A stretch of 41,944 nt of DNA from Patescibacteria group bacterium (GCA_018895765.1 JAHINX010000061.1:1-41944); one strand, 5' to 3'. Counted from the stretch's first letter, positions 3,409 through 41,944 are shown. The notes: generated by a model from the sequence alone, not told the origin. Program-made: numbers and translations.

Positions 3409-3530
3409 AGAAATTATCAATTATCAACGTTCAATTATCAATGAATTTCAAAGTTTAATTTTTTCAATGATCATTAAACGGTTTGCGATTGATTATTCAT
3501 TGATCATTGGTTATTGAATATTGAGTATTT

Positions 3531-17212: not shown

Positions 17213-17310
17213 TTCCTCCCCGTCTTCTCCCCCTTAGGAGAAGGGGGACCCGGGGGGATTTAATAATTTTTAAGTCCCCCCTGCCCTTCTTTTTCAAAGG
17301 AGGGGACTTG
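17213..17310. repeat. family A G-rich hairpin elements, two copies arranged tail to tail
   Basis: tcttctcccccttaggagaagggggacccggggggatttaataat, followed by the inverted copy ttaagtcccccctgcccttctttttcaaaggaggggacttg. Confidence 0.7.
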
Positions 17311-18195: not shown

Positions 18196-21100
18196 TAAAA
18201 AAATCCTCTTTCTATAAAAAAGGAGGATTTTGGAATTTCAGATTTCAAATTTCAGATTTTAGATTTAATCTGATTAAATTATTTATACCGGTTATTTTGA
18301 TTGCCGGTTTTTTTGTCCCCTATTTTTCTTTTGCTTGGGACAGCCATTTTACCCATCGCGCCTTAACTTATGAAGCGGGAGAATTTTTTAATTATTTTAA
18401 TGATAGCCAACTAAGTGAAGAAGAAATTAATTGGCTGATGCAAGGAGCGCAAGAAGAAGATACTCCTCCGCGCTGGATAAACCATTTTTACAATCCAATA
18501 ACAGGCGAGGGTTGGACAGGCGATAAGCTGGGAGAAAACTCCCCAGGGCTTGTAAAATTTTTAAGCGGATTTTTTCTTTCTTCAAGAACTGCGCTTTCTG
18601 CAAAAAACTGGGCAAAAAACCGTTCCGCCCAAGCTGACTATTCATTATATAAAGGCGACCAAACCTGGCAAAAAGCGATTGATGCCTATTTGGAAGGGGA
18701 TAGAGAATCCGCTTTTGTTGCTTTGGGCCATATTCTTCATCTATTGGAAGATATGACGGTGCCGGACCATACGCGCGGAGACACTCATGCCGGCATTGTT
18801 GGCGACAAAGGAAGCCCCTTGGAAAATTGGGCAAAAGAATATAACAAAGACAAAATTGGCAAATTACAAACAGCAGAGGAATTATATAAGTCAGGCCAGA
18901 AGCCAAAAGATTTTTCAATTTTGGAAAATTATTTTGATTGGAATGCAAAATACAGTAGTGAAAATTTTTTTAGTGAGGATACAATAAATGAAAACTTAAT
19001 AGCTGTTCCAGAGTTAATTATTGGAGAAAATCAGCAAATTTACGGTTATATTAATAATTATCCCGTTTATACGGTAAAAGATAATAAAGAAACTATCAAT
19101 GATCCCCAAATCCTCACCGCTTATTGGCAGCGCCTCTCAAAGCAGGCAGTCATCTCCAGCGCCGGAGTAATAAATCTTTTTTTCAAAGAGGCCGAACGCC
19201 AATCAAAACTTCCGCAAAAAATGACAAAAAAGAGCAATACTACAACAAACACAATTTGGTCGCCATTTGGGGAGCTTACAAAATTATACAATACAGCAGT
19301 TCAGTTCGCGCAAGGTTTTTTCCCGCAAAGCACAAAAGCCGATGAATCGGTAAATGATGAGATTGTCACGTCGCAAGCTAATAGTGGTGACGAACGACTA
19401 TCAGAGCAAGCTTCTCCCCCTTCGGAGAAGGGGGATTTAGGGGGATTTAATAATAACCAATCAACAATAATCAATCAGCAATCAATAATTCCTGACCCGA
19501 CTCCCGCAAGCGAATCAATAACAGAGCCGGAAACAAATTTCTACGTCAGCCAGGTAATAGACGGCGATACGATTACGTTGAATAGCGGAGAAGATGTCCG
19601 TCTAATTGGTATGGATACGCCAGAACGCGGAGAAGAGTGTTTTGAAGAAGCAAAGCAGAAAATGGAATCAATGGTATTGGGCAAGAATATCCGTTTAGAA
19701 AAAGATACAAGTGAAACCGACAAATATAATCGGTTGTTACGTTATATTTATATAGACGGCGTGTTGGTAAATGCCGAGATGCTAAAAGAGGGATATGCGC
19801 ATCTTATGATGATACGGCCGGATACGAAATATTACAGCGCTTTCAAGTCATACGAAGAAGAAGCGAAATTTTTTGAACGCGGATGTTTATTTCAAAAGGA
19901 AGGCGTCGGTGGAGCCGATCCAATAGATGAAACGCCGGTATACACGGGCTGGTCATCAGCCGGCGGGAGTTCTAAGCCGGCGCCTCAAGCGCCAAAGGAA
20001 GAAACGCCGACTTCAACTCCGGAAACCGCCACCAGCACGTTGGAAGTAATTTTGGAAGATATAACTTCAACCTCAACTCCGCAAACTTCAACCTCAACTC
20101 CGCAAACTTCAACCTCAACTCCGGAAACTTCAACCTCAACTCCGGAAACCGCCACCAGCACGTTGGAAATCCCCGAAATTTTGCCAAATATTATTATAAA
20201 TGAAATACAGATTAGCGGAGGTCCGGGTGACACCGATAATGAATTTATAGAATTATATAATAATTCATCTGGCGCAGTTGATATTACTGATTGGAAATTA
20301 TTTAAAAAAACAGAAACGGTGCTGAGTTATAACCCTGATAAACAGCCTCCTGCGGAATATAATCTTGTTTCAAAATTCCCCACGGGCTCAACAATTCCAG
20401 CGAATTCGTATTTTCTTATTGTCCCCAAAAATGCCATTGGTAAACATGCGGATACGAATTATACCAACGGAAGCAATTTTGCCACGAGCGACGATACTCT
20501 TATTATAAGAGATGCGGACGGAAATATTATTGATAAAGTCGGTTTTGGCCTTGCGAATGACTATGAAGTACAACAAACGTATAATCCGCTGGACGGCCAA
20601 AGCATAAGCCGCACAAATTTTATCGACACGAATAATAATTTTAATGATTTTACGGTTTCCAGTTCAACGCCACAAGGGACAAGTAGCACTATGGCAATTG
20701 CGCCAGAACCAGAGCCGGAACCGGTTATTCCACCTGTCGTACCGGAACCGTCGGCGCCAACAATAGCTTGCACTACCTTTACTTACGGTACTCATAACAA
20801 AGAGGAAGGAGAAGCAGACAAAATCGCCGCCGAACCATTTCCGGATTTTTCAAATACATTAACTGTTACATTGGAAGCAGGGAAGACCTACTACACCGAC
20901 GATACAATATCCATTCCTAATAATAGAAAGTTAATAATAGAAGAAGGTGTGGTGTTAAAATTTGGAAGATGGCGCTGGGGAGGATGGATGAACTTTCCAA
21001 TCAGTTTGCGCATTTTAGGAGACCTGGAAGTAAATGGCACTGCTTCAAACCCGGTTATTTTTACAACTTTCCGCGATGACGCGCACGGCGTGGCGATTGA

Positions 21101-27048: not shown

Positions 27049-27126
27049 TGGTACCCCCGACCGGATTCGAACTGGCGAATACTGGCGTTAAAGGCTAGTC
27101 TCTTAAGCAAACTAGAGTACGGGGTA
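27049..27126 (-). pseudogene. tRNA-like sequence with UUA at the anticodon position and an encoded CCA; degenerate
   Basis: TACCCCG-TA-CTCT-AGTTTGCTTA-AGAG-A-CTAGC-CTTTAAC-GCCAG-TATTC-GCCAG-TTCGAAT-CCGGT-CGGGGGT-A-CCA. There is an A-C mismatch in both the anticodon and T stems, the 5' acceptor strand is one C short, and the D-loop has no GG. Confidence 0.45.
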
Positions 27127-27685: not shown

Positions 27686-30340
27686 ATGCAGGATAAGATA
27701 ATTATAAAAGGCGCGCGTGAGCACAATCTGAAAAATATTAGTTTGGAGCTTCCGCGCAATAAGCTGATCGTTTTTACGGGATTATCCGGTTCGGGAAAAT
27801 CGAGCCTGGCTTTTGATACTATTTTTGCCGAAGGCCAGCGCAGGTATATTGAGTCGCTATCGGCATATGCCCGGCAGTTTTTGGGAAAGATGGATAAGCC
27901 GGATGTTGATGAAATAGAAGGTCTTGCGCCGGCAATTTCCATTGATCAAAAAGCCCATAGCGCAAACCCGCGTTCAACCGTGGCGACCATTACCGAAATT
28001 TATGATTATTTGCGCGTCCTCTTTGCTCGCGTGGGAGAACCGTTTTGTCCAGTTTGCAAAAAGAAAATTCAAAAAATGACTGTCCAGGAAATGGTGGATG
28101 TAACGCTAGAAAAATTGGAAAAAGAAAAAATAAAAAGCGAAGATAAACTAATTATTTTATCTCCAATTATTCGTGGCCGAAAAGGCGAATATTATCAGCT
28201 TCTTTATGATTTATATAATAAAGGTTTTAGTGAAGTCGCGGTTGACGGAAAAATGCATAAGCTTAGTGGAACGATAAAATTATCCCGTTATAAACGGCAC
28301 GATATTGATTTGGTTATCAGAAAATTAACCATCGCATATCCGATCCATGATAATAAAGTTTTGCAAAAAGAATTATCCGAAGCAATAGAAACTTCTTTAG
28401 AAGAGTCGGACGGTTTGGTAAAAATTATTATGCCGGGGACGTCTGTCATTGCGAGGAGTCCGTACTCGGAGGACGTGGCAATCTCACTGCAAAAAGATAG
28501 GATTGCTTCGTCGCAGAATTCTCCATTTTCCGTCAAGGCTACGAACGGCACGCAGAATGACGTTTTATTACTTTCGTCAAAATATTCTTGCCCGAATGAT
28601 AATTTTGCTTTTCCGGAAATAGAACCGCGTCTTTTTTCATTTAATAGTCCATACGGCGCTTGTGAATATTGTCATGGAATTGGAACGAAATTTATTTTTT
28701 CTGACGAAATATGCCCAAAGTGTCTTGGTAAGCGCCTAAAAATAGAAGCGCTTCATGTTTTAATCGGCGGAAAAAATATTAATGATGTTGTTAATATGTC
28801 GATAAGCGAAGCAGTAGAGTTTTTTAGTGGATTAAAATTATCCGCAAAACAAAAAGAAATTGCCGAAGCCGCGCTCCGCGAAATAAAAAACCGCCTTACT
28901 TTTATGCTTGATGTTGGGCTTAATTATCTAACATTGAATAGAAAGGCTGGCACCTTGTCTGGCGGAGAAGCACAAAGAATCCGGCTTGCTTCGCAAGTTG
29001 GCTCACGTCTTGTCGGCGCGCTCTATGTTCTTGATGAGCCGACAATCGGGCTTCACCAGCGTGACAACGAGCGTTTGCTTGAAACGTTATCTGAGCTCCG
29101 CGATATCGGCAATACGGTGATTGTAGTTGAGCATGATGAAGATACAATCTTAATGAGTGATTATATGGTTGATATAGGTCCTGGCGCCGGTAAAAACGGT
29201 GGAGAAATAGTTGCATCAGGCACGTTGCAGGAGGTTTTGAAAAATAAAAATTCTTTGACCGCAAAATATCTCCGCGGAGAATTAAAAGTGCCAATGCCCG
29301 AGACGCGCAGAAAAAATATTAAAGAAAAAATTGTAATTTCCGGCGCGACCGAGCATAATCTGAAAAATATAAAAATTGAAATTCCCTTGAAAAAATTTGT
29401 TTGTCTTACCGGCGTTTCCGGTTCCGGTAAATCAACGGTGATGAATGACATTTTATACCGCGCGGCTTCCAAAAAAATAAACCATTCAGGGGTTAGGCCG
29501 GGCGCATATAAAAAAATAGAAGGCCTCTCGCATATTGATCGCGTGATTGTTGTTGACCAGTCGGCAATTGGTAGAACTCCGCGTTCCAATCCGGCAACTT
29601 ATACCGGATGTTGGACACATGTCCGCGAACTTTTTTCCACTACGCCCGAAGCGCGGGCGCGTGGGTATAAAATCGGACGTTTCAGTTTTAACCGCCCGGG
29701 TGGAAGATGCGAACACTGCGAAGGTAATGGCACGATTGCTATTGAAATGCATTTTTTGCCGACAGTTTATGTAAAATGCGATGTTTGTAAGGGCAAGCGG
29801 TTTGACCGCGAAACATTGGAGATAAAATATAAAGGGAAGAATATTGCTGATATTTTGGATATGGAAATAGATGAAGCCGATGGATTTTTCAAGAATATTC
29901 CGCAGATATCCGACAAGCTGAAAGTTTTGCGCCAAGTCGGTTTGGGCTATTTGGAACTCGGCCAGGGCGCGCCGACCTTGTCTGGCGGAGAAGCGCAAAG
30001 AGTGAAATTGGCAAAAGAGCTTTCAAAATATTATTCTCTTCGTTTCCGTCAAGGCCTGTCGCGTTCGCTTTATCTTTTGGATGAGCCGACAGTCGGCCTC
30101 CATTATGACGATATAAAAAAGCTTGTCGCGGTTTTGCAAGAGCTTGTTTCCGCGGGAAATACAGTTCTAATTATTGAACATAATCTTGATATAATAAAAA
30201 ATGCGGATTATATTATTGACCTTGGTCCGGAGGGCGGGGATAAAGGTGGAGAGGTTATTGCAACTGGTACACCGGAAGAGGTGGCGCGGATGCCCAGATC
30301 ATATACGGGGCAATACTTGCGAAAAGTTTTGGGGGTTTAG
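27686..30340 (+). CDS. uvrA: excinuclease ABC subunit A
   Basis: The start is set at [18 protein letters not shown]. Two ABC modules ([26 protein letters not shown] x2) and zinc-finger Cys clusters. Confidence 0.95.
28445..28561 (+). mobile_element. family C MITE-like element, 117 bp, in frame inside uvrA
   Basis: gtcattgcgaggagtccgtactcggaggacgtggcaatctc...cgcagaatgac, with terminal inverted repeats. The first roughly 40 nt match 32027-32066. Translated as [39 protein letters not shown]. Confidence 0.75.
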
Positions 30341-30642: not shown

Positions 30643-30773
30643 GACTACCTCCTTATCCATAATATTAAGCGTAAATATATTTTATGTCAACCAAATTAGA
30701 AAAATATTCATAAAAATCCCCAATACTTTTCGCGAACGCGAAAAGTATTGGGGATTTAAATAAAATCAGGATT

Positions 30774-32015
30774 ATGTTTAGTAAAAAAATGGCAAAAGCA
30801 TTAAATAACCTACCTGACAAGCCCGGCGTATATCTTTTTAAAGATAATCGTGGGGAAATTATTTATGTTGGCAAAGCCGGCTCATTAAAGCGGAGAGTAA
30901 AATCATATTTTGCGCGGGCAGGGGACAGAAAAACAGAAGCGCTTGTTTCGGAAGCTATTGATTTGGAAATCCGCGAAACGCCATCTGTTCTTGAAGCTCT
31001 GATTTTGGAAGCGGAACTTATAAAAAGATTAAAACCAAAATACAACATCCGCGATAAAGACGATAAGTCATTTATTTATGTCGGCATCACGCGGGAAGAT
31101 TTTCCAAAACCGATATTGGTGCGCGGGCATGAGTTGCAAGCTATGAATTCTAAGTTTCAAGTTTCTTTTGGGCCGTTTACCAGCGCCGGCGCGCTCCGTG
31201 AAGCGTTAAAAATTTTGCGCGGAATTTTTCCTTGGTCAGAGTGTAAACCAAACCAAAACAAACCATGTTTTTATTATGGCATTAAAAAATGTCCCGGTGT
31301 ATGCGTTGGCAAAATCAGTAAAAAAGATTATCAGAAAAACATTTCAGGTTTAAAATTATTTTTTCGCGGGAAGAAGACGCAAATTATAAAAAATCTGGAA
31401 CGCGAAATGAAAGAGGCTTCAAAAGATCGCGAGTTTGAGCGCGCGGCTGAATTTCGCAATAGGATTTATGCCCTAAACCATATTCATGATATTTCTTTGA
31501 TAAAAAAAGACGATTTTATGAACTGTAGGGCTCCCGAAGCCCTACAGCATAAAGCAATGGGCAGAATTGAGGGGTATGATATATCCAATATCAGCCAAAA
31601 GCTGGCAACCGGTTCTATGGTCGTTTTTAGAGATGGCGCGCCGGAAAAAAAAGAATATAAAAAATTTCGCATAAAAAATACCAAGTCCGGCGACGTGCCA
31701 ATGCTTCGCGAGGTTTTGACGCGCAGATTTAAAAATAATTGGCCAAGTCCTGATATAATTTTGATTGATGGAGGAGAAGCGCAGGTTGGCGTTGCGGAAA
31801 AAGTTTTGAAGGCAAACAAATTGAATATTCCGGTTATTGGCATTGCCAAGGGGATCTCCAGAAAAAACGACCGTTTTGTTTTTGATTATAATGACCAGGA
31901 ATTGAAAAGAATAACTAAAATTTTTGAAAATTTATTTAAACAGGTTCGCGATGAAGCGCATCGTTTTGCGATTGGCTACCATAGAAGTTTGCGGAAAATA
32001 AAACGGCCGTTATAA
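30774..32015 (+). CDS. uvrC: excinuclease ABC subunit C, short form without the C-terminal (HhH)2 domain
   Basis: GIY-YIG (PGVYLFKDNRGEIIYVGKAGSLKRRV), a UVR domain (FERAAEFRNRI) and an endonuclease domain (IEGYDISN...DGGEAQ...RDEAHRFAI). It ends after 413 aa. Confidence 0.85.
   Translation: MFSKKMAKALNNLPDKPGVYLFKDNRGEIIYVGKAGSLKRRVKSYFARAGDRKTEALVSEAIDLEIRETPSVLEALILEAELIKRLKPKYNIRDKDDKSFIYVGITREDFPKPILVRGHELQAMNSKFQVSFGPFTSAGALREALKILRGIFPWSECKPNQNKPCFYYGIKKCPGVCVGKISKKDYQKNISGLKLFFRGKKTQIIKNLEREMKEASKDREFERAAEFRNRIYALNHIHDISLIKKDDFMNCRAPEALQHKAMGRIEGYDISNISQKLATGSMVVFRDGAPEKKEYKKFRIKNTKSGDVPMLREVLTRRFKNNWPSPDIILIDGGEAQVGVAEKVLKANKLNIPVIGIAKGISRKNDRFVFDYNDQELKRITKIFENLFKQVRDEAHRFAIGYHRSLRKIKRPL
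31521..31547 (+). repeat. family B 27-nt hairpin element in uvrC
   Basis: aactgtagggctcccgaagccctacag. Stem gtagggct/agccctac, loop cccga. Translated as NCRAPEALQ. Confidence 0.85.
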
Positions 32016-32026
32016 AACCTCTTTCC

Positions 32027-32131
32027 GTCATTGCGAGAAGTGCGTACTCGCGCGACGTGGCAATCCCGTCTAAAATGAGATTGCCACGCCCCGCTCCAGT
32101 TTTGAAGAACTGGATCTGGACTCGCAATGAC
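32027..32131 (+). mobile_element. family C MITE-like element, intergenic copy directly after the uvrC stop
   Basis: gtcattgcgagaagtgcgtactcgcgcgacgtggcaatccc...ctcgcaatgac. Flanked by the imperfect direct repeats aacggccgttataaaac (32002-32018) and aacggcctcataaaac (32149-32164). Confidence 0.75.
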
Positions 32132-32213
32132 ATGCAGGGGAGTTTTAGAACGGCCTCATAAAACGGGTTGACAAAAAGTAATAAATTTGCTTAAATATAA
32201 GGAAGGAGGCGCG

Positions 32214-32387
32214 ATGGATAAGCGGGTTTTATTGGTTTTTCTGGTAATGGGTATTGATGATACAATGAATCTTGACCGCATTCTGCGGAAAAGTACCTTT
32301 AGTCCGCCCGCAAAAAGAAAAGTTCAGCGGATTTTGAAAAACCGAGCTTTTGCTCATCGTTTATTGGTCATTCACAAAAAAGGATAA
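32214..32387 (+). CDS. small hypothetical protein
   Basis: 57 aa counted from ATG 32214. Promoter TTGACA(32168-32173)-17-TTAAAT. SD AAGGAAGGAGG. Confidence 0.45.
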   Translation: MDKRVLLVFLVMGIDDTMNLDRILRKSTFSPPAKRKVQRILKNRAFAHRLLVIHKKG

Positions 32388-32399
32388 GAGGAGGAGAAA

Positions 32400-32732
32400 A
32401 TGAAAAAAGTAACGGTTCTGATCGTTTTATTGTTTTTTTCCGGATGCGCTGGCGCAAGATATGAAAAATGCAATTGTGACACGTCTTTAAGAACGCTAAA
32501 ACAGGAAGTCAACAAAGACTTAACAGAGCAAAAATTGGCAAGCGCCCGGAATGAATCAATTTCCAGAGAATACCGTTTGCTTTTCTATAAGCTAGTGACT
32601 CATGTGAAGGAAATGCAAAAGGATTATAATGGTCTACAGGCAAGATATATGATGTTGGAGCTCCACGGCGCCCAACTGGAAAAAAATATCAGAGATTTGA
32701 AAAAGCCACGCCACACAAGAAAGAAGAGGTAG
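32400..32732 (+). CDS. coiled-coil lipoprotein with basic C-terminal tail
   Basis: Lipobox LFFSGC, heptad-like helical body, C-terminus KKPRHTRKKR. SD GAGGAGG. Confidence 0.6.
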   Translation: MKKVTVLIVLLFFSGCAGARYEKCNCDTSLRTLKQEVNKDLTEQKLASARNESISREYRLLFYKLVTHVKEMQKDYNGLQARYMMLELHGAQLEKNIRDLKKPRHTRKKR

Positions 32733-32735
32733 AAA

Positions 32736-33104
32736 ATGAAAAATCTCATATTGTTTTTATCGATTTTTCTTTTTGCTTGCACCAAAGGAACGCCAGTACC
32801 AGCAACCCCTTTAAAAACTCATAACGAGCTTAGGCTTGAAAAAGAATTTACCGCGTTAAAGAAAGATTTTCAAACATTAAAAAATGAAACGAATGACGAT
32901 CTTGCTAAGCTTCAACTTCAAATTATTCAAGATAGAAAAAGAACCGATGATTTGATCCTTGGAGCGGTAAAAGGCATTGGCGCCGGAGTAAGGAATGCTT
33001 TTGGAAGTTTTGCCAAGAGTATCACTTTAACATTCACATCATTTGACACGCGCATCAAGGAATTGGAAAAAGTTCATCATAAAAAGATAAAAAAGAAAAA
33101 GTAG
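32736..33104 (+). CDS. coiled-coil lipoprotein with basic C-terminal tail
   Basis: Lipobox LFAC, coiled-coil body, C-terminus HHKKIKKKK. Terminator aacgggc/gcccgtt followed by a T-run at 33109-33133. Confidence 0.6.
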   Translation: MKNLILFLSIFLFACTKGTPVPATPLKTHNELRLEKEFTALKKDFQTLKNETNDDLAKLQLQIIQDRKRTDDLILGAVKGIGAGVRNAFGSFAKSITLTFTSFDTRIKELEKVHHKKIKKKK

Positions 33105-33149
33105 TTTTAACGGGCCCTTCCGCCCGTTTTTTTAAATTCCACAATATGT

Positions 33150-33273
33150 TTGAATTGTGGTGAATATTGGTGTATAATAAAGTTACAGTGGTGAAAAGTG
33201 GGGGATATTCTGTGGATAACAACCCCTTTTTACTCTATTTTAGTTAAAATGCTGTTACTTCTACTTATCCACA
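33150..33273 (+). promoter_or_regulatory. mraZ/dcw promoter region with GTGG-type (MraZ-box-like) repeats and two perfect DnaA-box 9-mers
   Basis: TTGAAT(33150-33155)-17-TATAAT(33173-33178). GTGGTG at 33188-33193 and GTGGGG at 33198-33203, spaced 10 bp apart. tgtggataa at 33211-33219 and ttatccaca at 33265-33273, in inverted orientation. Confidence 0.5.
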
Positions 33274-33375
33274 GTATCAATTGCAAATATCAAATTGCAA
33301 ATTTATTGATTATATTGTTTTAGGGTAATCGTAATAATTTAATAAAATTTGGAATCTGAAATTAGAAATTAGAAT

Positions 33376-33807
33376 ATGTTCATCGGCGAATACCACCACA
33401 ATATGGACGATAAGGGACGGCTGGCAATACCAGCCAAGTTTCGGGCTGAGTTGGAACGGGGCGTTGTAATAACTCGTGAGCTTGATAGTTGTTTATCTAT
33501 TTATCCGGCAGAGGAGTGGGATAAGCGCGCGGAAAAGCTTGCTAAAATACCAACAGTCCAGACTGATCCGCGCTCTTTTGTACGTTCACAACTTTCAGGC
33601 GCAATGGATATGAAATTGGATGGTCAGGGAAGGATCGTTTTGCCGGATTACCTTCGCAAATACGCGGGACTTGCAAAAGAAGCGGTAATTGTCGGGCTTT
33701 ATAATCGTTTAGAAATTTGGGATAAAGGCGCTTGGGAAAAATACCGCGATTCTATGGAAGAAAAAGCAAATGAAGTGGCGGAAAAGCTTGGAGATTTTGG
33801 AATATAA
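33376..33807 (+). CDS. mraZ: transcriptional regulator MraZ
   Basis: MFIGEYHHNMDDKGRLAIPAKFR... with the duplicated DxxGR motif (DDKGRLAIP and DGQGRIVLP). First gene of the dcw-type cluster. Confidence 0.9.
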   Translation: MFIGEYHHNMDDKGRLAIPAKFRAELERGVVITRELDSCLSIYPAEEWDKRAEKLAKIPTVQTDPRSFVRSQLSGAMDMKLDGQGRIVLPDYLRKYAGLAKEAVIVGLYNRLEIWDKGAWEKYRDSMEEKANEVAEKLGDFGI

Positions 33808-33812
33808 AATAA

Positions 33813-33896
33813 CCCCTAACCCCTAACCTTTAACCTTTAACCTTTAACAATTAACCGTCAAATGTCAGATGTCAAATGTTAGATGTTAAATGTTCT
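33813..33896. repeat. 12 consecutive heptamers (cccctaa x2, cctttaa x3, caattaa, ccgtcaa, atgtcag, atgtcaa, atgttag, atgttaa, atgttct)
   Basis: Direct reading. It fills nearly the whole mraZ-rsmH spacer, with TAA or TAG in most units. Confidence 0.9.
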
Positions 33897-33900
33897 TACT

Positions 33901-34896
33901 ATGTATCATAATCCGGTAATGATTAAGGAGGTTTTGGAAGAAATGAATCCGCAACCTGGAGAAAATTTCATTGATTGCACTTTGGGAAACGCAGGGCATA
34001 CGATAGAAATTTTAGGAAGAACGAAACCCGACGGCAGAATTTTGGGTTTTGAATTAGACATCAAGGCGAGCGGGGAGGCAAAGGAACGGCTCCAAGAATT
34101 ACCGTGCCATTCGAAGCTTTCAAAGAGCGAAGAATGGTCAAATTTTGGAGAGGAGGGCCTTTTGAGCAGAGTTCACCCCGTTAAATCCGACAAGGTCGGT
34201 GCGAAGCAATTTAACAGAGTGGAAATTATTGAAGATAATTTTCGCAATATTAAAAAATATAAAAACAAATTGCCAAAAATAGATGGTATATTGGCTGACT
34301 TAGGTCTCCGAAGCGGACAAATAGAAGAAAGTGGAAAAGGGTTTTCTTTTAATGCGGACGAACCTCTTGATATGCGGTTCGGTTCAGAAGGAACAAGCGC
34401 GGAAGAAATTGTAAATACTTATACAACAGATGAGCTGGCGCATATTTTTCGCGAATACGGTGAAGAAAAAAATTATCAGCACATTGCAAAAGAAATTGTA
34501 AAAGCAAGAAAAAATAAACCAATAAAAACAACAGGCGAATTGGCGGAAATTATTCTGGATTTTTATCGCCAAAAGTTGAAAACTAAAAAAGAAATTCCAT
34601 GGCTCGGAGGAATACATCCGGCAACGCGTATTTTTCAGGCGCTTCGGATTGAGGCTAATGATGAGCTTGGTGCTTTAAAAAAATTATTGGAAGACGGGTC
34701 TGAGATTTTATCTCCCGGAGGAAGAATAGGAATTATTTCTTATCATTCTTTGGAAGATAGAATCGTCAAACGATTCTATAGAACTAGCCCCCAATTGGTC
34801 GTAAAGACCAAAAAACCGATCATTCCAAGCGAGGAGGAGGTAAAAAAAAATCGGCGTGCAAGAAGCGCAAAGTTTCGTGTCGCCATTAAGGAATAA
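33901..34896 (+). CDS. rsmH: 16S rRNA (cytosine1402-N4)-methyltransferase
   Basis: MYHNPVMIKEVLE..., DCTLGNAGH, GILADLGLRSGQ, HPATRIFQALRIEAN, SYHSLEDRIVK. Contains an insert of about 38 aa at 34099-34212. Confidence 0.9.
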   Translation: MYHNPVMIKEVLEEMNPQPGENFIDCTLGNAGHTIEILGRTKPDGRILGFELDIKASGEAKERLQELPCHSKLSKSEEWSNFGEEGLLSRVHPVKSDKVGAKQFNRVEIIEDNFRNIKKYKNKLPKIDGILADLGLRSGQIEESGKGFSFNADEPLDMRFGSEGTSAEEIVNTYTTDELAHIFREYGEEKNYQHIAKEIVKARKNKPIKTTGELAEIILDFYRQKLKTKKEIPWLGGIHPATRIFQALRIEANDELGALKKLLEDGSEILSPGGRIGIISYHSLEDRIVKRFYRTSPQLVVKTKKPIIPSEEEVKKNRRARSAKFRVAIKE

Positions 34897-34941
34897 AATC
34901 TCCTAAACACACCCTTTATAAAATTTTTTTATCCTCGTTTA

Positions 34942-35017
34942 TCCCCGCCCCGGTTTTGTCAGTAAGGTTTTTTTTGAAATCTTTTGGATAAAACCGGGGC
35001 GGGGGAAATCGGTTTTT
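34942..35017 (+). terminator. long GC-rich hairpin with T-run after rsmH (terminator or REP-like)
   Basis: tccccgccccggtttt (34942-34957) pairs with aaaaccggggcggggga (34990-35006), then ...ggtttttt. Confidence 0.5.
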
Positions 35018-35021
35018 TATG

Positions 35022-35152
35022 CCCGGTAGTGAAACTTTGACAGCTTTGCATGGCAAAGCCGGACATTGCCGGAAATATAAAAGCTTTCAAAAACATTTTA
35101 ATTTCAACAAATTAATCTAAAAAATTATAAAAGTCAAAGTTCTACTACCGGG
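35022..35152. repeat. family F intergenic element abutting the ftsL-like start codon
   Basis: cccggtagtgaaactttgac (35022-35041) pairs with gtcaaagttctactaccggg (35133-35152). The AT-rich core contains aaattaatc, as does the copy at 6999-7143. Confidence 0.7.
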
Positions 35153-35153
35153 T

Positions 35154-35507
35154 ATGGTAAAAAGAAAAATAAAAAAACAAAAATTTGAATTTAGGAGACA
35201 AAGAGGCCGGGCAAAAAAAGGAAAATTACCCGTTTTCCGATTTAATATTTTTGCTGTTGCACTTGCGCTTGTTTTTTTAATTGGTAATCTTGTTATTATT
35301 AACAGCATCACGGAAAATGGATACAAAATGAAAAAAATGAAAGAAGATTTAATGGACTTGAAAAATAAAAAACAAGAATTAAGTTTAGAAATCTCCGAAA
35401 GGCAATCAATGGAAAATGTTCTGTCAAAAGTGGAAGATTTGGGTTTGGTAAAAGCCGATAAAATAGAATATATAGAGGGCTCCGCAAGTGCGATGGTGAA
35501 AAGATAA
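35154..35507 (+). CDS. cell division protein FtsL-like
   Basis: Basic N-terminus, one TM helix, then a coiled coil. It sits directly after rsmH, as in dcw clusters. Confidence 0.6.
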   Translation: MVKRKIKKQKFEFRRQRGRAKKGKLPVFRFNIFAVALALVFLIGNLVIINSITENGYKMKKMKEDLMDLKNKKQELSLEISERQSMENVLSKVEDLGLVKADKIEYIEGSASAMVKR

Positions 35508-35544
35508 CACCTAACACCTAACATTTAACACCTAACATTTAACA
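35505..35544. repeat. heptamer tandem repeat (taacacc/taacatt) starting at the ftsL-like stop codon
   Basis: taacacc taacacc taacatt taacacc taacatt taaca. A TAA every 7 nt gives stops in all three frames. Confidence 0.9.
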
Positions 35545-35630
35545 TGCCCCCGCTTTAGCGGGATTTTTTGTTTTTAACGATTTTAGATATCTCTTGCAAA
35601 AAAGCATATTTTAAGATAATATTATATAAT

Positions 35631-37109
35631 ATGCCATACAAAAAATATAAAAAGATTCATTTTATAGGGATTGGCGGAATAGGCGTAAGCGCTGTTGCTA
35701 AGTGGGCGCTTTTGGAAGGCGTGGAGGTGAGCGGTTCCGATGTGGAAAATACAGAAATAACGAGTGAGCTTCAAAAAATGGGAGCCAAAATTTTTATTGG
35801 TCATAAAGAAAAAAACATTGCGCGTGATATTGACTTAATTGTTTATTCTTCGGCCGTGCCAGCCACAAATCCTGAACGCTCGGTTTTGAGACGGATACGC
35901 CACAGCAAGTCCCTTCCTTTGGAAAAGGAAGGACAGGATGGATTTAATAATGATTTAATTCCCCAGAAATCATATTTCGAATTTTTGGGAGAAATAACCC
36001 GTGGGAAAAAATTGATTGCAGTGTCAGGGACTAATGGCAAGAGCACGACAACGGCAATGCTGGGAAAAATTTTGATTGACGCCGGTCTTGACCCACTTGT
36101 TATCGTCGGTTCAAAAATAAATGTTTTTTCGCACGGCAATTTTAATTATGGAAAAGGGGAATACGCAGTCGTGGAGGCATGCGAGCATAACGCGCATATG
36201 TTGAATCTGCATCCATGGTCAATCGTTCTTACAAATATAGAAGCAGATCATTTGGATTTTTATAAAAATTTGGACAATATTCTGGAAGCGTTTAAAAAAT
36301 ATGTCGCCAAGATAGAAAAAGGATGTTTTCTAATATATAACGGCGATGATAAAAATAGCGCCGAGGTGGCAAAAACTCACGCTTGCCGTCTTATTTCCTA
36401 TGGCGTGCATGAAGATGCGGACTTGCGGTTTGAAGAGCGCCATATCGATAAAGGCACACAGATTTTTCAAACAAAAACTGTAGGGCTCCCGAAGCCCTAC
36501 CAGATGGAATTGCAAGTACCTGGGCTTTTTAATGTTTATAATGCGATGGCGGCAATATCTATGGCAAAGGCGCTTGGTATCAAATTTGAGGTAATAAAAA
36601 AATCGCTTGCAAATTTTCGCGGGCTTTGGCGCAGGTTTGAGCACGTTGGAGAATATAATGGCGCGCCAATTATTTCCGATTACGGCCACCATCCGCACGC
36701 GATAGAAGCAACGCTTTTGGCCGCACGCGAATTTTATCCGGATAGAAGAGTTATATTAGCATACGAACCACACCAGCACCATAGGACAAAGGCTCTTTTT
36801 GCCGATTTTGTCCGCAGTTTCGACAAGGCAGATGTTCTTATTTTGGGAGAGATATATAATGTAGAAGGAAGAGTCGAAAAACAAGATTGTGATATATCTT
36901 CGCGCAAACTTGCAGACGCAATTATAAAGTATTGGGAATCGGATGAAAATAAAAAGGAGCGTACAGAGCACGAATTATTTTATTGTGAAAATAATGATGA
37001 AGTTTTGAAAGCGCTGAAAGAGACAATAAACTCCGACGACGTTGTGATAATTATGGGAGCAGGGGGGATTTACAAAGTTGCAAAAAGATTGATTGCCGCG
37101 GATTCCTAG
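35631..37109 (+). CDS. murC: UDP-N-acetylmuramate--L-alanine ligase
   Basis: The start is set at MPYKKYKKIHFIGIGGIGVSAVA. GTNGKSTT and DYGHHPHAIEATL. Carries a family A insert (35907-35953) and a family B insert (36476-36503). Confidence 0.9.
   Translation: MPYKKYKKIHFIGIGGIGVSAVAKWALLEGVEVSGSDVENTEITSELQKMGAKIFIGHKEKNIARDIDLIVYSSAVPATNPERSVLRRIRHSKSLPLEKEGQDGFNNDLIPQKSYFEFLGEITRGKKLIAVSGTNGKSTTTAMLGKILIDAGLDPLVIVGSKINVFSHGNFNYGKGEYAVVEACEHNAHMLNLHPWSIVLTNIEADHLDFYKNLDNILEAFKKYVAKIEKGCFLIYNGDDKNSAEVAKTHACRLISYGVHEDADLRFEERHIDKGTQIFQTKTVGLPKPYQMELQVPGLFNVYNAMAAISMAKALGIKFEVIKKSLANFRGLWRRFEHVGEYNGAPIISDYGHHPHAIEATLLAAREFYPDRRVILAYEPHQHHRTKALFADFVRSFDKADVLILGEIYNVEGRVEKQDCDISSRKLADAIIKYWESDENKKERTEHELFYCENNDEVLKALKETINSDDVVIIMGAGGIYKVAKRLIAADS
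35907..35953 (+). repeat. family A hairpin element (diverged copy) inside murC
   Basis: aagtcccttcctttggaaaaggaaggacaggatggatttaataatgat is translated as KSLPLEKEGQDGFNNDL. Confidence 0.6.
36476..36503 (+). repeat. family B hairpin element in murC
   Basis: aactgtagggctcccgaagccctaccag is translated as TVGLPKPYQ. Confidence 0.85.
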
Positions 37110-37213
37110 CGGATTCTCACGGATGGGATTTACGGATCCGTGTAATCTAATCAGTGGAAATCAGCTATAAATCCGTAAAAATCCTTTTTATTAAACGGAA
37201 GGAACTATAACAT

Positions 37214-38182
37214 ATGATAAATATTTTAGAAAATCAACTCCTATCCAAATACACCACCTTTCATATTGGCGGGGCGGCCAAACATTTTGTAATTGTAAAA
37301 AATACAGAAGAATTGCAAGAGGCCTTGGAATGGGCAAAAGAGAATAATGAGAAATATTTTATCCTTGGTGGAGGGTCTAATGTGCTTTTTTCCGATGATG
37401 GATATGAGGGGCTGGTTATAAAAATTGCTTTTTTCGACATAATAATAGAAGGAGGGGGGATGATTGCCGGAGCAGGCGTTCCCTTGCTCTTAGCCGTCAA
37501 GCGCGCGGGAGATGCAGGGCTCGCGGGCTTGGAAAATTTTGCAGGCATTCCTGGCACAATTGGTGGCGCGGTTACAAATAATGCCGGCGCTTATGGATCA
37601 TCTATAGAAAAAGCCGTAGAAAAAGCCGAAATCGGCTTTGCCGTCCCGAGCGAAGTCGAGGGATCTCACAATTACAATATAAAAATAGTAGATAACGAAT
37701 GGTTTGAATTTGGTTATCGGAAAAGTAAGCTGAAATATTGGCAAGACGCTGACAAGCCGGTTATTCTACGCGTTTGGTTGAAATTGCAAAAAGAAGATAA
37801 AGAAAAATTGCAGGAAAAAATTAAAGAAGTAATGAATGACCGGATAAAGAAAGAGCCAAAGGGCTTTTGCGCCGGATGTGCTTTTAAAAATATAAAAGGA
37901 GAAGAAGTGGCAAAAATTTTGGAGAAGTTTGATTTTACTCCCGAAGAACGCGAACGCTTTGGCTCCCGTAAGGCAATTCCGACAGCCTGGTTTATTGATC
38001 ACGCGGGATTAAAGGGTAAAAAAATCGGCGGAGCCTATATTTCGGAAGAGCATGCTAATTATATAATGAATGATAGCACAGCAACCGCGGATCACGTCCT
38101 TCAGCTTGTTTCACTTGTAAAACAGCAGGTCCGTGATAAATTTGGAGTGCAATTAGAAGAAGAGGTGCAAGTAGTAGAATGA
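37214..38182 (+). CDS. murB: UDP-N-acetylenolpyruvoylglucosamine reductase
   Basis: LSKYTTFHIGGAAKHFV, GGGSNVLF, and YRKS followed by the C-terminal substrate domain. Confidence 0.9.
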   Translation: MINILENQLLSKYTTFHIGGAAKHFVIVKNTEELQEALEWAKENNEKYFILGGGSNVLFSDDGYEGLVIKIAFFDIIIEGGGMIAGAGVPLLLAVKRAGDAGLAGLENFAGIPGTIGGAVTNNAGAYGSSIEKAVEKAEIGFAVPSEVEGSHNYNIKIVDNEWFEFGYRKSKLKYWQDADKPVILRVWLKLQKEDKEKLQEKIKEVMNDRIKKEPKGFCAGCAFKNIKGEEVAKILEKFDFTPEERERFGSRKAIPTAWFIDHAGLKGKKIGGAYISEEHANYIMNDSTATADHVLQLVSLVKQQVRDKFGVQLEEEVQVVE

Positions 38183-38212
38183 CCAAGTCCCAAATCCCAA
38201 TGACCAATGAAG
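38178..38212. repeat. heptamer repeat block identical to the one after ftsE
   Basis: gaatgaccaagtcccaaatcccaatgaccaatgaag. The murB TGA stop is part of the first aatgacc unit. Confidence 0.85.
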
Positions 38213-38259
38213 GCGCTTTGCTGTCGCAAAAATAAATTATTAAAAATTAATTTAAATTT

Positions 38260-38637
38260 ATGAAATTAGAATCAATAAAATATACGGGGATAGAATCAAG
38301 CCCCGCGTTAAATGAATACGTAGAAGAAAAGATTGCGACTCTTAGTAAATATGTAGAAAATTTTGGCACTCCGCGCGATATTCGTGTGGAGCTTGAAAAA
38401 ACTACACACCACCATCAGACAGGCCCATTTTTTCGCGCTGAGGCGAATATTAATATTCCCGGGCATTTTTTCCGCGCAGAGCAGACTGCGGATGATATAT
38501 ATGACGCGATTGATATGTTAAAAAATGATTTGGAACGCCAACTTTCCGATTACTCGGATAAACTCCGCACAAAAAAGCGCGATGGTGGACAAGAGATGAA
38601 AAATATGTTAAATTATGACGAGTCAGTAGGGGAATAA
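38260..38637 (+). CDS. hpf: ribosome hibernation promoting factor (short HPF/RaiA type)
   Basis: 125 aa. S30AE-family pattern: ...SPALNEYVEEKI...RVELEK...FRAEANINIPG..FRAEQTADDIYDAIDMLKNDLERQL. Confidence 0.8.
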   Translation: MKLESIKYTGIESSPALNEYVEEKIATLSKYVENFGTPRDIRVELEKTTHHHQTGPFFRAEANINIPGHFFRAEQTADDIYDAIDMLKNDLERQLSDYSDKLRTKKRDGGQEMKNMLNYDESVGE

Positions 38638-38656
38638 AAAAAGAGCCCGCAGGCTC

Positions 38657-38884
38657 TTAAGTGAGAATTCTGTATTTAACTAAAACTGATATAAATCGCT
38701 GAGGAAGCCCGGTGGCAGCATGCGGTAAAGGCAGTCTTCCATTAGAGGAATTGATTATAACGGTCATGTCAAACTCTGTTTTATAGCTTATTACGTCAAC
38801 TTTTCCTAATTCTTTATGTATTGCGTCAGATACTGCTTTATCATCGCATATTGTATTTTGCAAAATTACGCGGTGCTTTAGCAT
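38657..38884 (-). CDS. hypothetical protein (orphan cassette)
   Basis: 75 aa counted from ATG 38884 (SD AAGGAGGG). Promoter TTGACA(38939-38934)-17-TAATAT(38916-38911). Hairpin aagagcc/ggctctt plus a T-run overlaps the stop codon. Confidence 0.6.
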   Translation of the reverse strand: MLKHRVILQNTICDDKAVSDAIHKELGKVDVISYKTEFDMTVIINSSNGRLPLPHAATGLPQRFISVLVKYRILT

Positions 38885-39015
38885 TACTCCCTCCTTTTCT
38901 TTTGTTCTTGATATTATCAAAAAATTAAATATTTGTCAAGTGTCAATGATTAGCTCCACAGAACGGGATACGGCATTCCCTTACTACTTGCTACACACTA
39001 CTTACTACATTTTTT

Positions 39016-41679
39016 ATGTTCTTCTCCGACCCAAACAAAAAAGCGTTAAAAAGAATGCAGCCATTTGTGGATAAAACCAATGAGCTGGAACCAGCATTTG
39101 AAAAAATGTCTGATTTTGATTTGCAAAATAAAAGCAAAGAACTAAAAACGCAGGCTCAAACAACTGTAGGGCTCCCGAAACCCTATAGTTTAGATGATAT
39201 TTTGCCTGAGGCGTTTGCCTTAGTGCGCGAAGCGGCAAAGAGAACATTGGGACAGCGTCATTTCGACGTTCAGCTCTTGGGCGGAGTCGTTCTTCATAAT
39301 GGAGAAATCGCGGAGATGAAAACCGGTGAAGGAAAAACCTTAACTTCCACTTTGGCGGTATATCTAAATGCTTTGGCAGGAAGGGGAGCGCACGTTGTTA
39401 CTGTAAATGATTATCTTTCCCGCCGTGACGCCATATGGATGGGGCAGATTTTTGGATTTTTAGGTCTTTCGGTTGGTATTATCAACCATATGCAGTCATT
39501 TCTATATGACGCGAGCTGGAAGGCGGAAACGCCGGAAGAATCGGAAGAAGCTGACCGCAAACGCGACCTTTATGCCAGCTTCCGTGTAAATGAGGATTTT
39601 TTGCGCCCATGTTCCCGCAAAGAAGCATATGACGCGGACATTACTTACGGCACAAACAATGAATTTGGTTTTGATTATTTGCGTGACAATATGGCAACTC
39701 GGCTGGAGGATAGAGTTCAGCGCGAATTTTATTATGCGATTGTGGATGAAGTAGATTCTATTTTAATTGATGAGGCGCGTACCCCGCTCATTATCTCGGC
39801 GCCAGCAGAAGAATCTGGCGAAATGTATGCCCGCTTTGCCCGTATTGTAAAAAATTTAAAAGAAGACGAAGATTATAATCTAGATTTAAAAATGCGCGCC
39901 GCAACGCTTACGGATGCAGGCGTGGATAAAATAGAAAAAGCGCTTAATATTCCGAATATTTATGCTGAAGGCGGAATAAAAATGGTCCATCATCTTGAGC
40001 AGGCCTTAAAAGCTGAAACACTTTTTCACCGTGACAAGGAATACGTAATCCGAGACGGAGAAGTTTTTATTGTTGATGAATTTACTGGCCGGTTAATGCC
40101 TGGTAGGAGATATAGCGAAGGGCTTCATCAGGCGATTGAGGCCAAAGAGGGCGTAAAAGTTCAGCGCGAAAACCAGACGCTAGCCAGCGTTACATTTCAA
40201 AATTATTTTAGAATGTATGAAAAGCTCGCCGGTATGACCGGCACGGCCTTGACGGAAGCGGAAGAATTTTCAAAAATTTATTTTCTTGAAACTGTGGCCA
40301 TGCCGACAAATAAGCCATTATCAAGAAAGGATTTTCCGGACAGAATTTATAAAAATAAAAAAGGAAAAATCCGCGCGGTAATAGAAGAGGTGAAAGAACT
40401 TCAGGCAAAAGGACAGCCAGTATTGGTTGGTACGGTATCGGTTGAAGAGAATGAAGAATTTAGCGAAAAATTTGAAAAAGCAGGCATACGCCATGAAATT
40501 TTGAATGCAAAAAATCATGCCCGTGAAGCGGAGATTATTGCTCAGGCAGGCAAAAAGGGCGCGGTGACTCTAGCTACCAATATGGCAGGCAGAGGCGTTG
40601 ATATTGTCTTGGGTGGTGCTCCATATAATGAGAAAGCGGCCGAAGAAATCCGCGTTTTGGGAGGCTTAGCGGTAATTGGCACTGAACGGCACGAATCGCG
40701 CCGGATCGATAATCAGCTCCGCGGACGCGCCGGACGCCAGGGCGATCCGGGCTTTAGTCGTTTTTATGTATCCTTGGAAGATGAACTGATGCGTATTTTT
40801 GCGGCCGAAAAGATAGGATATATAATGGAAAAGCTGGGTCTTCCGGAAGATACGCCGATTGAAAACGGAATGGTTTCAAAGGCTATTGAATCAGCCCAGA
40901 AAAAAGTTGAAGGACATAATTTTGATATCAGAAAGCACTTACTTGAGTATGATGATGTTATAAATCGTCATCGCGAAGCGATTTATTCACGCAGAAGAAG
41001 CATTTTGGAACGGGAGAACATAAAAGAAGATATATTAAAAATAATAGAAGACGAGCTGGAGCAGGTGATTGTTTTTCATACTTCCGATCCGGCACGTAAA
41101 AATTGGAATTTAAAAGAAATATGGCAGGTGGCAAATACAATTTTTTCTTTAGAAAAAGAAGTATTAGCAAAATTTTCAGAGATTTTGGCAGGCGAGGGGA
41201 GCGACAATCTTAGCGTCGTAAAACGCAGAGACGCGATGGTTGAGATTTTGGTTAAAAAAATGCGAGAAGAATACGAAAAAATGGAAAGTAGAATGATTGA
41301 ACAATCTGGAAACCGCGAAATTTTGCGCCAGATTGAAAAAGGCCTTAGTATGCGCGTTCTTGATACTTTATGGATAAGCCATCTTGAAGAAATTGATTAT
41401 TTACGTACAAGTATCGGTTTGCGTGGAATTGCCGGCAAAGATCCTTTGGTGGAATTTAAGCGCGAAGCATATCGCCTTTGGAATGAGCTCCAGTCCGCAA
41501 TTGATAAGCAAATGGCGTACTCTATTTTTAAAATTGAACTTGCGCAGAATATGGCCCCCCAGTCTCCCTTTAAAAATCAAAACGTGAATGCTCCTTTAGA
41601 GCAAAAAGAAAAAGCTGGTCGCAATGATCCTTGTCCCTGTGGAAGCGGTAAAAAATACAAAAAATGCTGTGGCGTGTAA
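39016..41679 (+). CDS. secA: preprotein translocase ATPase SecA
   Basis: 887 aa. LPEAFALVREA, MKTGEGKTL, DEVDSILIDEARTPLIIS, and the C-terminal zinc motif CPCGSGKKYKKCCG. Confidence 0.95.
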   Translation: MFFSDPNKKALKRMQPFVDKTNELEPAFEKMSDFDLQNKSKELKTQAQTTVGLPKPYSLDDILPEAFALVREAAKRTLGQRHFDVQLLGGVVLHNGEIAEMKTGEGKTLTSTLAVYLNALAGRGAHVVTVNDYLSRRDAIWMGQIFGFLGLSVGIINHMQSFLYDASWKAETPEESEEADRKRDLYASFRVNEDFLRPCSRKEAYDADITYGTNNEFGFDYLRDNMATRLEDRVQREFYYAIVDEVDSILIDEARTPLIISAPAEESGEMYARFARIVKNLKEDEDYNLDLKMRAATLTDAGVDKIEKALNIPNIYAEGGIKMVHHLEQALKAETLFHRDKEYVIRDGEVFIVDEFTGRLMPGRRYSEGLHQAIEAKEGVKVQRENQTLASVTFQNYFRMYEKLAGMTGTALTEAEEFSKIYFLETVAMPTNKPLSRKDFPDRIYKNKKGKIRAVIEEVKELQAKGQPVLVGTVSVEENEEFSEKFEKAGIRHEILNAKNHAREAEIIAQAGKKGAVTLATNMAGRGVDIVLGGAPYNEKAAEEIRVLGGLAVIGTERHESRRIDNQLRGRAGRQGDPGFSRFYVSLEDELMRIFAAEKIGYIMEKLGLPEDTPIENGMVSKAIESAQKKVEGHNFDIRKHLLEYDDVINRHREAIYSRRRSILERENIKEDILKIIEDELEQVIVFHTSDPARKNWNLKEIWQVANTIFSLEKEVLAKFSEILAGEGSDNLSVVKRRDAMVEILVKKMREEYEKMESRMIEQSGNREILRQIEKGLSMRVLDTLWISHLEEIDYLRTSIGLRGIAGKDPLVEFKREAYRLWNELQSAIDKQMAYSIFKIELAQNMAPQSPFKNQNVNAPLEQKEKAGRNDPCPCGSGKKYKKCCGV
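39162..39188 (+). repeat. family B hairpin element in secA
   Basis: aactgtagggctcccgaaaccctatag is translated as TVGLPKPYS, just upstream of the conserved LPEAFA segment. Confidence 0.85.
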
Positions 41680-41680
41680 T

Positions 41681-41724
41681 ACAAGGACGTTCCTTGTAAG
41701 ATTGACAAGGAACGTCCTTGTAAG
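41681..41724. repeat. pair of 17-nt hairpins (REP-like doublet) upstream of the RAYT-like gene
   Basis: acaagga-cgt-tccttgt-aag (41681-41700) and acaagga-acg-tccttgt-aag (41705-41724). The stems are the same and the loops are complementary. TTGACA(41702-41707)-17-TATAGG overlaps the second hairpin. Confidence 0.75.
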
Positions 41725-41769: not shown

Positions 41770-41944
41770 ATGCGAGATGATAGATATAAAAATTTTGCCG
41801 AAGGAGCCGTATATCATATTTATAATCGAGGCAATAATAAACAAAGTATTTTTTTAGATAAAGATGATTATAAATTTTTTATAACTCGATTAAGGCAAAA
41901 TCTTTATCCTGATGAATTATTAAAACGTATAGATCCTTTGCCAT
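41770..41944 (+). CDS. IS200/Y1-family transposase, RAYT-like (5' part only, cut by the window edge)
   Basis: MRDDRYKNFAEGAVYHIYNRGNNKQSIFLDKDDYKFFITRLRQNL... matches the N-terminal pattern of REP-associated tyrosine transposases (H.I.RGNN.Q.IF..D.DY..F). The ORF runs off the end of the window. Confidence 0.7.
   Translation, partial: MRDDRYKNFAEGAVYHIYNRGNNKQSIFLDKDDYKFFITRLRQNLYPDELLKRIDPLP

Follow-up and report, generated by a model that had tools for sequence, protein, structure and literature searches.

In-frame hairpins in uvrC, murC and secA of a Patescibacteria genome as probable members of a REP/RAYT system

Within a 41,944-nt stretch of DNA from a Patescibacteria group bacterium (GCA_018895765.1 JAHINX010000061.1:1-41944; the whole stretch is referred to here as the window), the genes uvrC, murC and secA each carry, in frame, a copy of the same 27-nt hairpin. 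These three hairpins are very probably copies of a repetitive extragenic palindrome (REP) type element, part of a system of REPs and REP-associated tyrosine transposases (RAYTs) that is widespread in Patescibacteria. The repeat occurs in relatives in genome-specific versions, lies both within genes and between them, and in relatives is linked to RAYT genes. A search of the literature found no paper tying RAYT or REP to Patescibacteria, in agreement with the first-pass annotation of the window, whose author was aware of no such element in this lineage.

Using ACTGTAGGGCTCCCGAAGCCCTAC and allowing up to three mismatches, a search of the window revealed three occurrences, all on the + strand, at 31521-31547 (no mismatches), 36476-36502 (two) and 39162-39188 (two, both transitions), whereas 100 dinucleotide-preserving shuffles of the window gave no match at all. 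Over their first 25 nt, the uvrC and murC copies do not differ (repeat family D17). Comparison with relatives sets the natural unit as ACT...AGT, which places the copies at 31522-31548 in uvrC (ACTGTAGGGCTCCCGAAGCCCTACAGC), 36477-36503 in murC (ACTGTAGGGCTCCCGAAGCCCTACCAG) and 39163-39189 in secA (ACTGTAGGGCTCCCGAAACCCTATAGT, with both transitions in the 3' arm). They are read as CRAPEALQ preceded by N in UvrC, as TVGLPKPYQ in MurC and, at SecA codons 50-58, as TVGLPKPYS, the SecA peptide across the hairpin-encoded residues being QTTVGLPKPYSLDD. All of this upholds the first-pass annotation, which had described the shared in-frame hairpin, the two transitions in secA and the peptides TVGLPKPY and CRAPEALQ without a stop. 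Its 8-bp stem proved too short for the uvrC copy, in which 10 bp (CTGTAGGGCT/AGCCCTACAG) enclose the loop CCCGA that it had given. RNA folding of the uvrC, murC and secA copies yielded −18.6, −13.7 and −12.4 kcal/mol (z = −6.6, −3.4 and −4.1, respectively). A search of the window against Rfam 15 at the gathering score returned tRNAs only and no structured RNA family at the hairpins.

The host open reading frames (ORFs) of all three copies remain open, and the identities of the genes are supported by both NCBIfam and PDB matches. All are on the + strand: uvrC at 30774-32015 (413 aa; TIGR00194, 380 bits), murC at 35631-37109, with an alternative start at 35568 (TIGR01082, 405 bits), and secA at 39016-41679. 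The UvrC protein is a short form lying about 160 residues below the 574-position family model, with its C-terminal helix-hairpin-helix domain apparently missing; its relatives are similar at 414-415 aa. The first-pass annotation had asked whether the insertion points fall in surface loops; all three copies occupy loop or linker positions. In UvrC the copy lies in the linker that joins the UVR/UvrC_M part to the RNaseH-like endonuclease domain, bounded by residue 245, where the first NCBIfam uvrC stretch ends, and by RIEG, where the PDB match to the endonuclease domain begins. Alignment with MurC proteins in the PDB puts the MurC copy in the place of a native beta-turn, ahead of the PGxxNxxNAxAA motif. 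SecA, the sole protein modelled (AlphaFold2, 36 sequences, mean predicted local distance difference test score, pLDDT, of 72), has residues T50-S58 in a coil linking helix 33-51 to helix 63-78, where pLDDT drops below 50 at residues 53-57. The proteins decorated with hairpin-encoded peptides are presumably functional.

The window organism is of the Parcubacteria/Paceibacteria type, as judged from SecA homologues, and its best SecA match (P0001) is 91% identical. The contig encoding P0001 (L006, GCA_002772895.1) is syntenic with the window from 27.7 to 41.9 kb at about 80% nucleotide identity, and global alignment of the two revealed no copy of the hairpin in this closest relative. At the secA site, L006 reads CAA GAA GGG AAA AAA TTA, compared with CAA ACA, the 27-mer and TTA in the window, a net gain of 18 nt. 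The two uvrC genes are of equal length, L006 having no hairpin there, and the window murC is longer by 3 nt. We considered whether the L006 uvrC stretch is a recognisable decayed hairpin and rejected this, its similarity being no higher than two AT-rich sequences would give. More distant orthologues tell the same story: the UvrC linker is equal in length within one residue to those of 40-odd orthologues, the MurC hairpin residues align to the native beta-turn of PDB MurC with a single gap (five relatives likewise, with a one-residue gap), and SecA homologues carry three to four residues (xGxx) at the point where the hairpin stands. Measured against the closest relative and against distant orthologues, UvrC shows a net difference of 0 to −1 codon, MurC of +1 and SecA of +6. 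The hairpin thus stands where native residues would be, in UvrC and MurC with almost no change in length. The ortholog alignment therefore did not bear out the claim that the element adds nine codons as a lineage-specific insertion, nor the statement that SecA homologues have no such residues at this position; at the secA and uvrC sites, moreover, many relatives carry hairpin versions of their own.

SecA proteins from relatives at 69-77% identity have other short inserts at the same point, such as TIGSPTSDS and TIGLAKSNS, and the prediction that these too are encoded by palindromes was borne out by their DNA. The secA versions in loci L009 (ACTATCGGAAGTCCGACTTCCGATAGT), L010 (ATTATCGGAGACCCGACCTCCGATAGT), L011 (ACTATTGGACTTGCGAAGTCCAATAGT), L012 (ACTATTGGTCACCAGGTAACCAATAGT, present twice) and L091 (ACTATAGGAAGCGAAACTCCCTATAGT) are all 27 nt long and begin at the same codon. 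Across five of these sequences (the window and L009-L012), both sides have changed in five of 13 pairs, pairing holds in 90.8% of cells as opposed to 23-45% with the partner slid, and the covariation score was reached by none of 500 shuffles. A neighbour-joining tree of SecA interleaves hairpin-bearing sequences with hairpin-free ones, the latter having a native-looking xGKx, a pattern that fits either repeated gain at one codon or an old gain followed by clean losses.

A consensus from 43 copies reads ACT-RT-N-GG-NNNN-CCG-NNNN-CC-N-AY-AGT, with a constant length of 27 nt, or nine codons. The ACT/AGT foot, the GG/CC pairs and the CCG loop are nearly invariant, the middle of the stem is free to co-vary, and unit position 6 is variable (A8 C10 G3 T22). 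The family form is a 12-bp stem with a CCG loop; in the window version the innermost pair is broken, giving the loop CCCGA. At least four of the six reading frames of the unit are open, and the usual frame encodes a Gly/Pro/Ser/Thr-rich peptide, T-[VI]-G-x-P-x-S-x-S.

Each relative has its own version, and it recurs. In 22.7 kb of L009, ACTATCGGAAGTCCGACTTCCGATAGT is present four times, plus one variant copy; the four lie in murC (at a site different from that in the window), in secA, immediately upstream of where uvrA starts and ahead of secD, and the L009 uvrC linker carries ACCGTAGGACACTGAGTGTCCTACGGT. The second copy of the L012 version follows secF. Orthologous hairpins occupy the uvrC linker in L009, L091 and L092. 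In L092 (10743-10796) there are two direct copies of the L012-type unit; we treat L012 and L092 as one genome on the basis of their common metagenomic sample and matching repeat version. In L091 (2398-2451) there is an inverted dimer of 54 nt that keeps the frame, with a 25-bp stem and a folding energy of −61 kcal/mol. Across the clade, then, both SecA codon 50 and the uvrC linker are occupied, and the version found there usually, though not always, matches the other copies in the same genome. The murC site of the window was occupied by a hairpin in none of the relatives examined.

To assess the wider distribution of the family we scanned 185,579 species, each represented by one genome, for the degenerate pattern ACTRTNGGNNNNCCGNNNNCCNAYAGT and obtained 75 matches in 69 loci. 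Perfect 12-bp palindromes made up 23 of the 75, with about 0.04 expected, and came mostly from metagenome-assembled genomes (MAGs) of Patescibacteria assigned to Paceibacterota, Parcubacteria, Minisyncoccia, Saccharibacteria and two unnamed bins. Roughly six of some 24 Patescibacteria copies from this unbiased scan, about a quarter, lie in long ORFs. These ORFs include two large surface proteins, LeuRS, where the copy is in frame at the junction of the catalytic and editing domains, and RecG, where it is in frame and separates helicase motifs I and Ia. An exact-pattern scan of the species-representative genomes with the window version gave no match; a metagenome scan with it gave five contigs, none of them from the window genome, one of which (L001) holds the exact window consensus once, in an intergenic position. 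Viral contigs yielded matches at chance level only.

Two directions of search connect the hairpin with a transposase. First, starting from the hairpin, we took the Y1_Tnp protein whose gene neighbours secA in L006 as a tblastn query against loci collected solely through the hairpin pattern. Distant Y1_Tnp homologues directly adjoin 27-mers, within 100 nt, in L047, L064, L053, L034, L075 and L046/L052. The RAYT gene of L047 (1453-2172, − strand) has one copy 22 nt upstream and another 49 nt downstream, in inverted orientation, and in L002/L003 a hairpin close to the window type (GTAGGGTT CCCGA AACCCTAC) directly follows the stop codon of a RAYT remnant. Second, starting from the protein, a search with the L064 sequence found at least 6830 homologues at E ≤ 1e-20, named only 'transposase'. 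We picked four homologues by sequence alone and obtained DNA for three (L088, L089 and L090), which are 67-83% identical to the query RAYT. In all three the gene is bracketed by members of the 27-mer family, inverted and 25-130 nt from the gene, and has nusA, H+-PPase, tig and clpP as neighbours. The RAYTs linked to the 27-mer carry an HUH motif (NHFHL/NHYHL) and YIHxNP, and precomputed Pfam data assign them to PF01797. Because Y1_Tnp genes flanked by inverted copies emerged from both directions of search, we assign the element to a REP/RAYT system and not to the Rickettsia palindromic elements (RPEs). Copies of the 27-mer also occur inside the RAYT ORF, in either orientation (within 1453-2172 of L047, at 939-965 of L053 and at 10192-10218 of L090); they apparently lie in the loop after the FEFND motif.

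The window itself ends in the 5' part of a RAYT-like Y1_Tnp (PF01797) gene (41771-41944, + strand), cut off by the window end and 75% identical to the L006 gene, and we evaluated it as the partner of the 27-mer. Its identity to the RAYT clade associated with the 27-mer is only about 30-35%. In front of it stands an inverted doublet of a different, 17-nt palindrome (ACAAGGACGTTCCTTGT / ACAAGGAACGTCCTTGT, 41680-41722), and equivalent palindromes flank the RAYT-like genes of L006 and L012, where they are seen only as flanks and are not dispersed. Moreover, L006 has the gene without the 27-mer and L009 has 27-mers without the gene in its 22.7 kb. We therefore rejected the gene as partner. Genes of this second RAYT-like clade hold a conserved place downstream of secA, each with genome-specific palindromes of its own (L006 12652-13335; L012 10120-10875).

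In the IS200/IS605 superfamily, Y1 HUH transposases work on hairpins in single-stranded DNA, and RAYTs are enzymes that bind and cleave their own REPs. Here, a RAYT-type Y1 (HUH) tyrosine transposase would recognise the single-stranded hairpin through its foot, GG/CC pairs and CCG loop, and would copy or exchange the 27-nt unit between sites; the RAYT would thus be the mobilising enzyme. Since the unit is exactly nine codons long and at least four of its six frames are open, in-frame copies in surface loops and inter-domain linkers would be tolerated and hence persist, only such copies surviving. The window genome probably has a RAYT of the L047/L064 clade elsewhere, with flanking hairpins resembling ACTGTAGGGCTCCCGAAGCCCTACAGT.

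Several observations weigh against this account. The only NCBIfam match of the transposases is to NF047646 (REP-associated tyrosine transposase), at 36-44 bits against a cut-off of 80, a score that leads us to read the transposase of this family, from its sequence, as a distant RAYT clade. The RAYT-like gene at 41771 belongs to another clade with its own palindrome, and so no cognate RAYT for the window genome was found within the 42 kb of the window. The copies are not the simple +27-nt insertions that a plain insertion model would lead one to expect. Where copies can be counted their numbers are low, with at most five strict matches per species-representative MAG (five each in JAUYME01 and CAJWTE01), and these counts lend no support to the very high copy number that the first-pass annotation had inferred from three hits in 42 kb. 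Finally, the GTAG head that typifies the best-studied REP superfamily is found in the window version but varies from version to version.

A particular form of mobilisation would account for some of these features. The RAYT might exchange a 27-nt cassette, cutting the ACT/AGT feet of two single-stranded hairpins and rejoining them crosswise. Such an exchange would explain the constant length of 27 nt, the replacement of native residues in UvrC and MurC with almost no change in length, the rewriting of long-occupied sites (secA codon 50 and the uvrC linker) to genome-specific versions, and the growth of the palindrome into locus-specific flanks. We consider it unlikely in this specific form; if true, it would amount to transposase-driven overwriting of short essential coding stretches.

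Alternatively, the hairpins could be cis-acting RNA or DNA structures maintained by selection, such as a ribosome pause, a site for an RNase or RNA-binding protein, or a replication or supercoiling signal, their mobility being incidental. Hairpins at the secA codon and uvrC linker of many diverged relatives, with compensatory changes in their stems, are what such selection would leave. So is the orientation of the intragenic copies: outside the RAYT genes, 11 of 11 have the CCG loop on the sense strand, orthologous secA copies not being independent counts, and frame 1 is over-represented among them. We rejected avoidance of stop codons as the cause of this bias, since by direct reading both orientations leave at least two of three frames open. 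However, the genes of the window lie nearly all on one strand and its GC skew is positive, and replication could equally give an orientation bias; strand-specific action during replication and selection on RNA or protein could each underlie the bias, alone or together. A selected structure also sits poorly with the finding of the same sequence in genes unrelated to one another, in the DNA between genes and on either side of a transposase gene, with the intact secA and uvrC of the closest relative, which lack the hairpin, with the interleaving of REP-free and REP-bearing SecAs in the tree, and with a murC site that is unique to the window genome. Taken together, these observations make it distinctly improbable that the hairpins are selected structures and favour copies of a mobile REP.

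A selfish palindrome like an RPE or a MITE (a transposable element of the miniature inverted-repeat kind), spreading by template switching or recombination with no dedicated enzyme and using the transposase gene merely as a preferred landing site, would accommodate the REP copies inside the RAYT ORFs of L047, L053 and L090 and the replacement of native codons at unchanged length. It would also accommodate the growth of the palindrome into flanks specific to each copy, as template switching would produce. Among 30 copies across Patescibacteria loci L001-L090, this extension reaches at least 3 bp in 15 (0.66 expected) and at least 5 bp in seven (0.05 expected), examples being ctcac|REP|gtgag in RecG and cttccaa|REP|ttggaag. 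We looked for a conserved target sequence in the flanks and discarded the idea; there is only a weak preference (−1 is never G and +1 is mostly T) and no motif. MITEs carry the terminal inverted repeats of an insertion sequence (IS), generate a direct target-site duplication and measure 70-300 bp, and RPE-1, the classic form of RPE, is a far longer insert, contributing tens of residues. Here, by contrast, the flanks show neither direct duplications nor terminal inverted repeats, the unit consists entirely of one 27-nt hairpin, much shorter than RPEs and MITEs, and the flanks often continue the palindrome. The strict conservation of the foot and loop bases suggests that a protein recognises them. 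Inverted REP pairs bracket RAYT genes at about 25-130 nt in independent genomes, which is the defining layout of a REPtron, and we regard spread without an enzyme as very unlikely. Chance similarity or an assembly artefact can hardly be entertained, given the absence of matches in the shuffled windows, the open host ORFs, and the recurrence of the family in independent assemblies from NCBI, ENA, JGI and Logan.

Beyond the REP copies, the window contains other repeats. A second hairpin family, TCTCCCCCTTnGGAGAAGGGGGA...GGGGGGATTTAATAAT, is present at 17224-17267, 19411-19454, 35908-35951 and, in reverse orientation, 3942-3986. One copy is intergenic and three are in frame, in an SNase/LTD protein (SPPSEKGDLGGFNNN), in MurC (SLPLEKEGQDGFNND) and in MurD; the MurC copy is missing from L006. 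The murC gene has a second in-frame insert of 69 nt (35881-35949), unrelated to the REP copy. Further in-frame inserts that L006 lacks are found in uvrA (117 nt, 28434-28550), rsmH (102 nt, 34091-34214) and murB (24 nt, 37644-37667), and the uvrA insert contains GTCATTGCGAGGAGTCCGTACTCGGAGGACGTGGCAATC, a close copy of which lies in the spacer after uvrC (within 31998-32157). Just upstream of uvrC, at 30714-30757, a perfect hairpin with a 20-bp stem and a GAAC loop lies in a 93-nt stretch missing from L006. Intergenic spacers consist of short tandem motifs (CCCCTAA/CCTTTAA, ATGTCAAATGTTAG, CAATTATCAA and TTTCAGATTTCAAA) at 33809-33899, 35520-35545, 3405-3447, 4733-4783 and 18229-18276, some of them inverted copies on either side of genes. 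Lastly, a tRNA-like gene at 27049-27126 (− strand) adjoins tRNA-Lys(UUU). Its anticodon loop is CUUUAAC, and the anticodon UUA would read UAA. ARAGORN calls it 'tRNA-Stop'; its score under the Rfam tRNA model is only 37.9 bits, and several of its pairs are non-standard. It may be either a suppressor-like tRNA or a duplicate of tRNA-Lys in decay.

With hairpin and RAYT linked in relatives of the window genome, the REP/RAYT partnership extends to Patescibacteria, a large and mostly uncultured radiation with tiny, gene-dense genomes. For annotation, the family explains recurrent nine-residue peptides such as TVGSPTSNS, TIGSPTSDS and NCWTSDVQQ in SecA, MurC, UvrC, LeuRS, RecG and surface proteins. 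The same codon positions holding differing versions in different genomes also provide a natural data set on how REP copies keep pace with their transposase.

How, then, does the element compare with systems already known? Like the REPtrons of E. coli, Pseudomonas and Stenotrophomonas, it is a dispersed palindrome in the short range of 20-40 nt, of genome-specific sequence, and in relatives a PF01797 Y1/HUH gene is bracketed by inverted copies, with the same neighbouring genes at three loci. REPs inside genes have already been described (Di Nocera et al., 2013; PMC3733652), in excess in replication and repair genes, including those for excinuclease subunits, and in aminoacyl-tRNA synthetase genes (PMC3733652); the in-frame copies in UvrC, LeuRS and RecG resemble them. 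Unlike in those REPtrons, the host here is a member of the Patescibacteria with a RAYT from a distant clade, the unit is always 27 nt, or exactly nine codons, and the per-genome copy number looks low. The same intragenic sites also remain filled from genome to genome, with differing versions of the unit. The window copies are all intragenic, as is about a quarter of those from the unbiased scan, so that the window copies are not extragenic in the sense in which REPs were first named. Unlike the GTAG-tagged REP superfamily (Di Nocera et al., 2013), the family has no conserved GTAG or CGTC head: GTAG/CTAC occurs in the window version and some others, most versions having ATCG, GTTG or ATTG there, and the family as a whole falls outside the GTAG class.

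RPEs are selfish palindromic DNA lying in frame inside genes (Ogata et al., 2000, as cited in PMC3733652) and are related to short tagged palindromes, the short intragenic RPE-4 and RPE-6 being CGTC-tagged (PMC3733652). The first-pass annotation had likened the element to them. The likeness holds in that a selfish-type dispersed palindrome is tolerated in frame in functional, often essential, core proteins, in the small, reduced genome of a host-dependent bacterium. It fails in anatomy, which is that of a 27-nt REP with a RAYT, a partner not described for RPEs, and with no net length added in two of the three genes. Neither the long block of added residues nor the CGTC tag of RPEs is present, and the element is set apart from them on size, tag and partner.

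With IS200/IS605 elements the family shares the enzyme superfamily (PF01797), a presumed chemistry of single-stranded hairpin recognition, and an orientation bias of its copies that fits action on one strand. Unlike them, its RAYT gene is probably not multi-copy and has the same neighbours at the three loci obtained, and the dispersed unit is a bare 27-nt hairpin without distinct left and right ends or a carried gene. The element is, then, of a known kind in a new lineage; it has the layout of a REPtron in relatives and works like intragenic REPs and RPEs.

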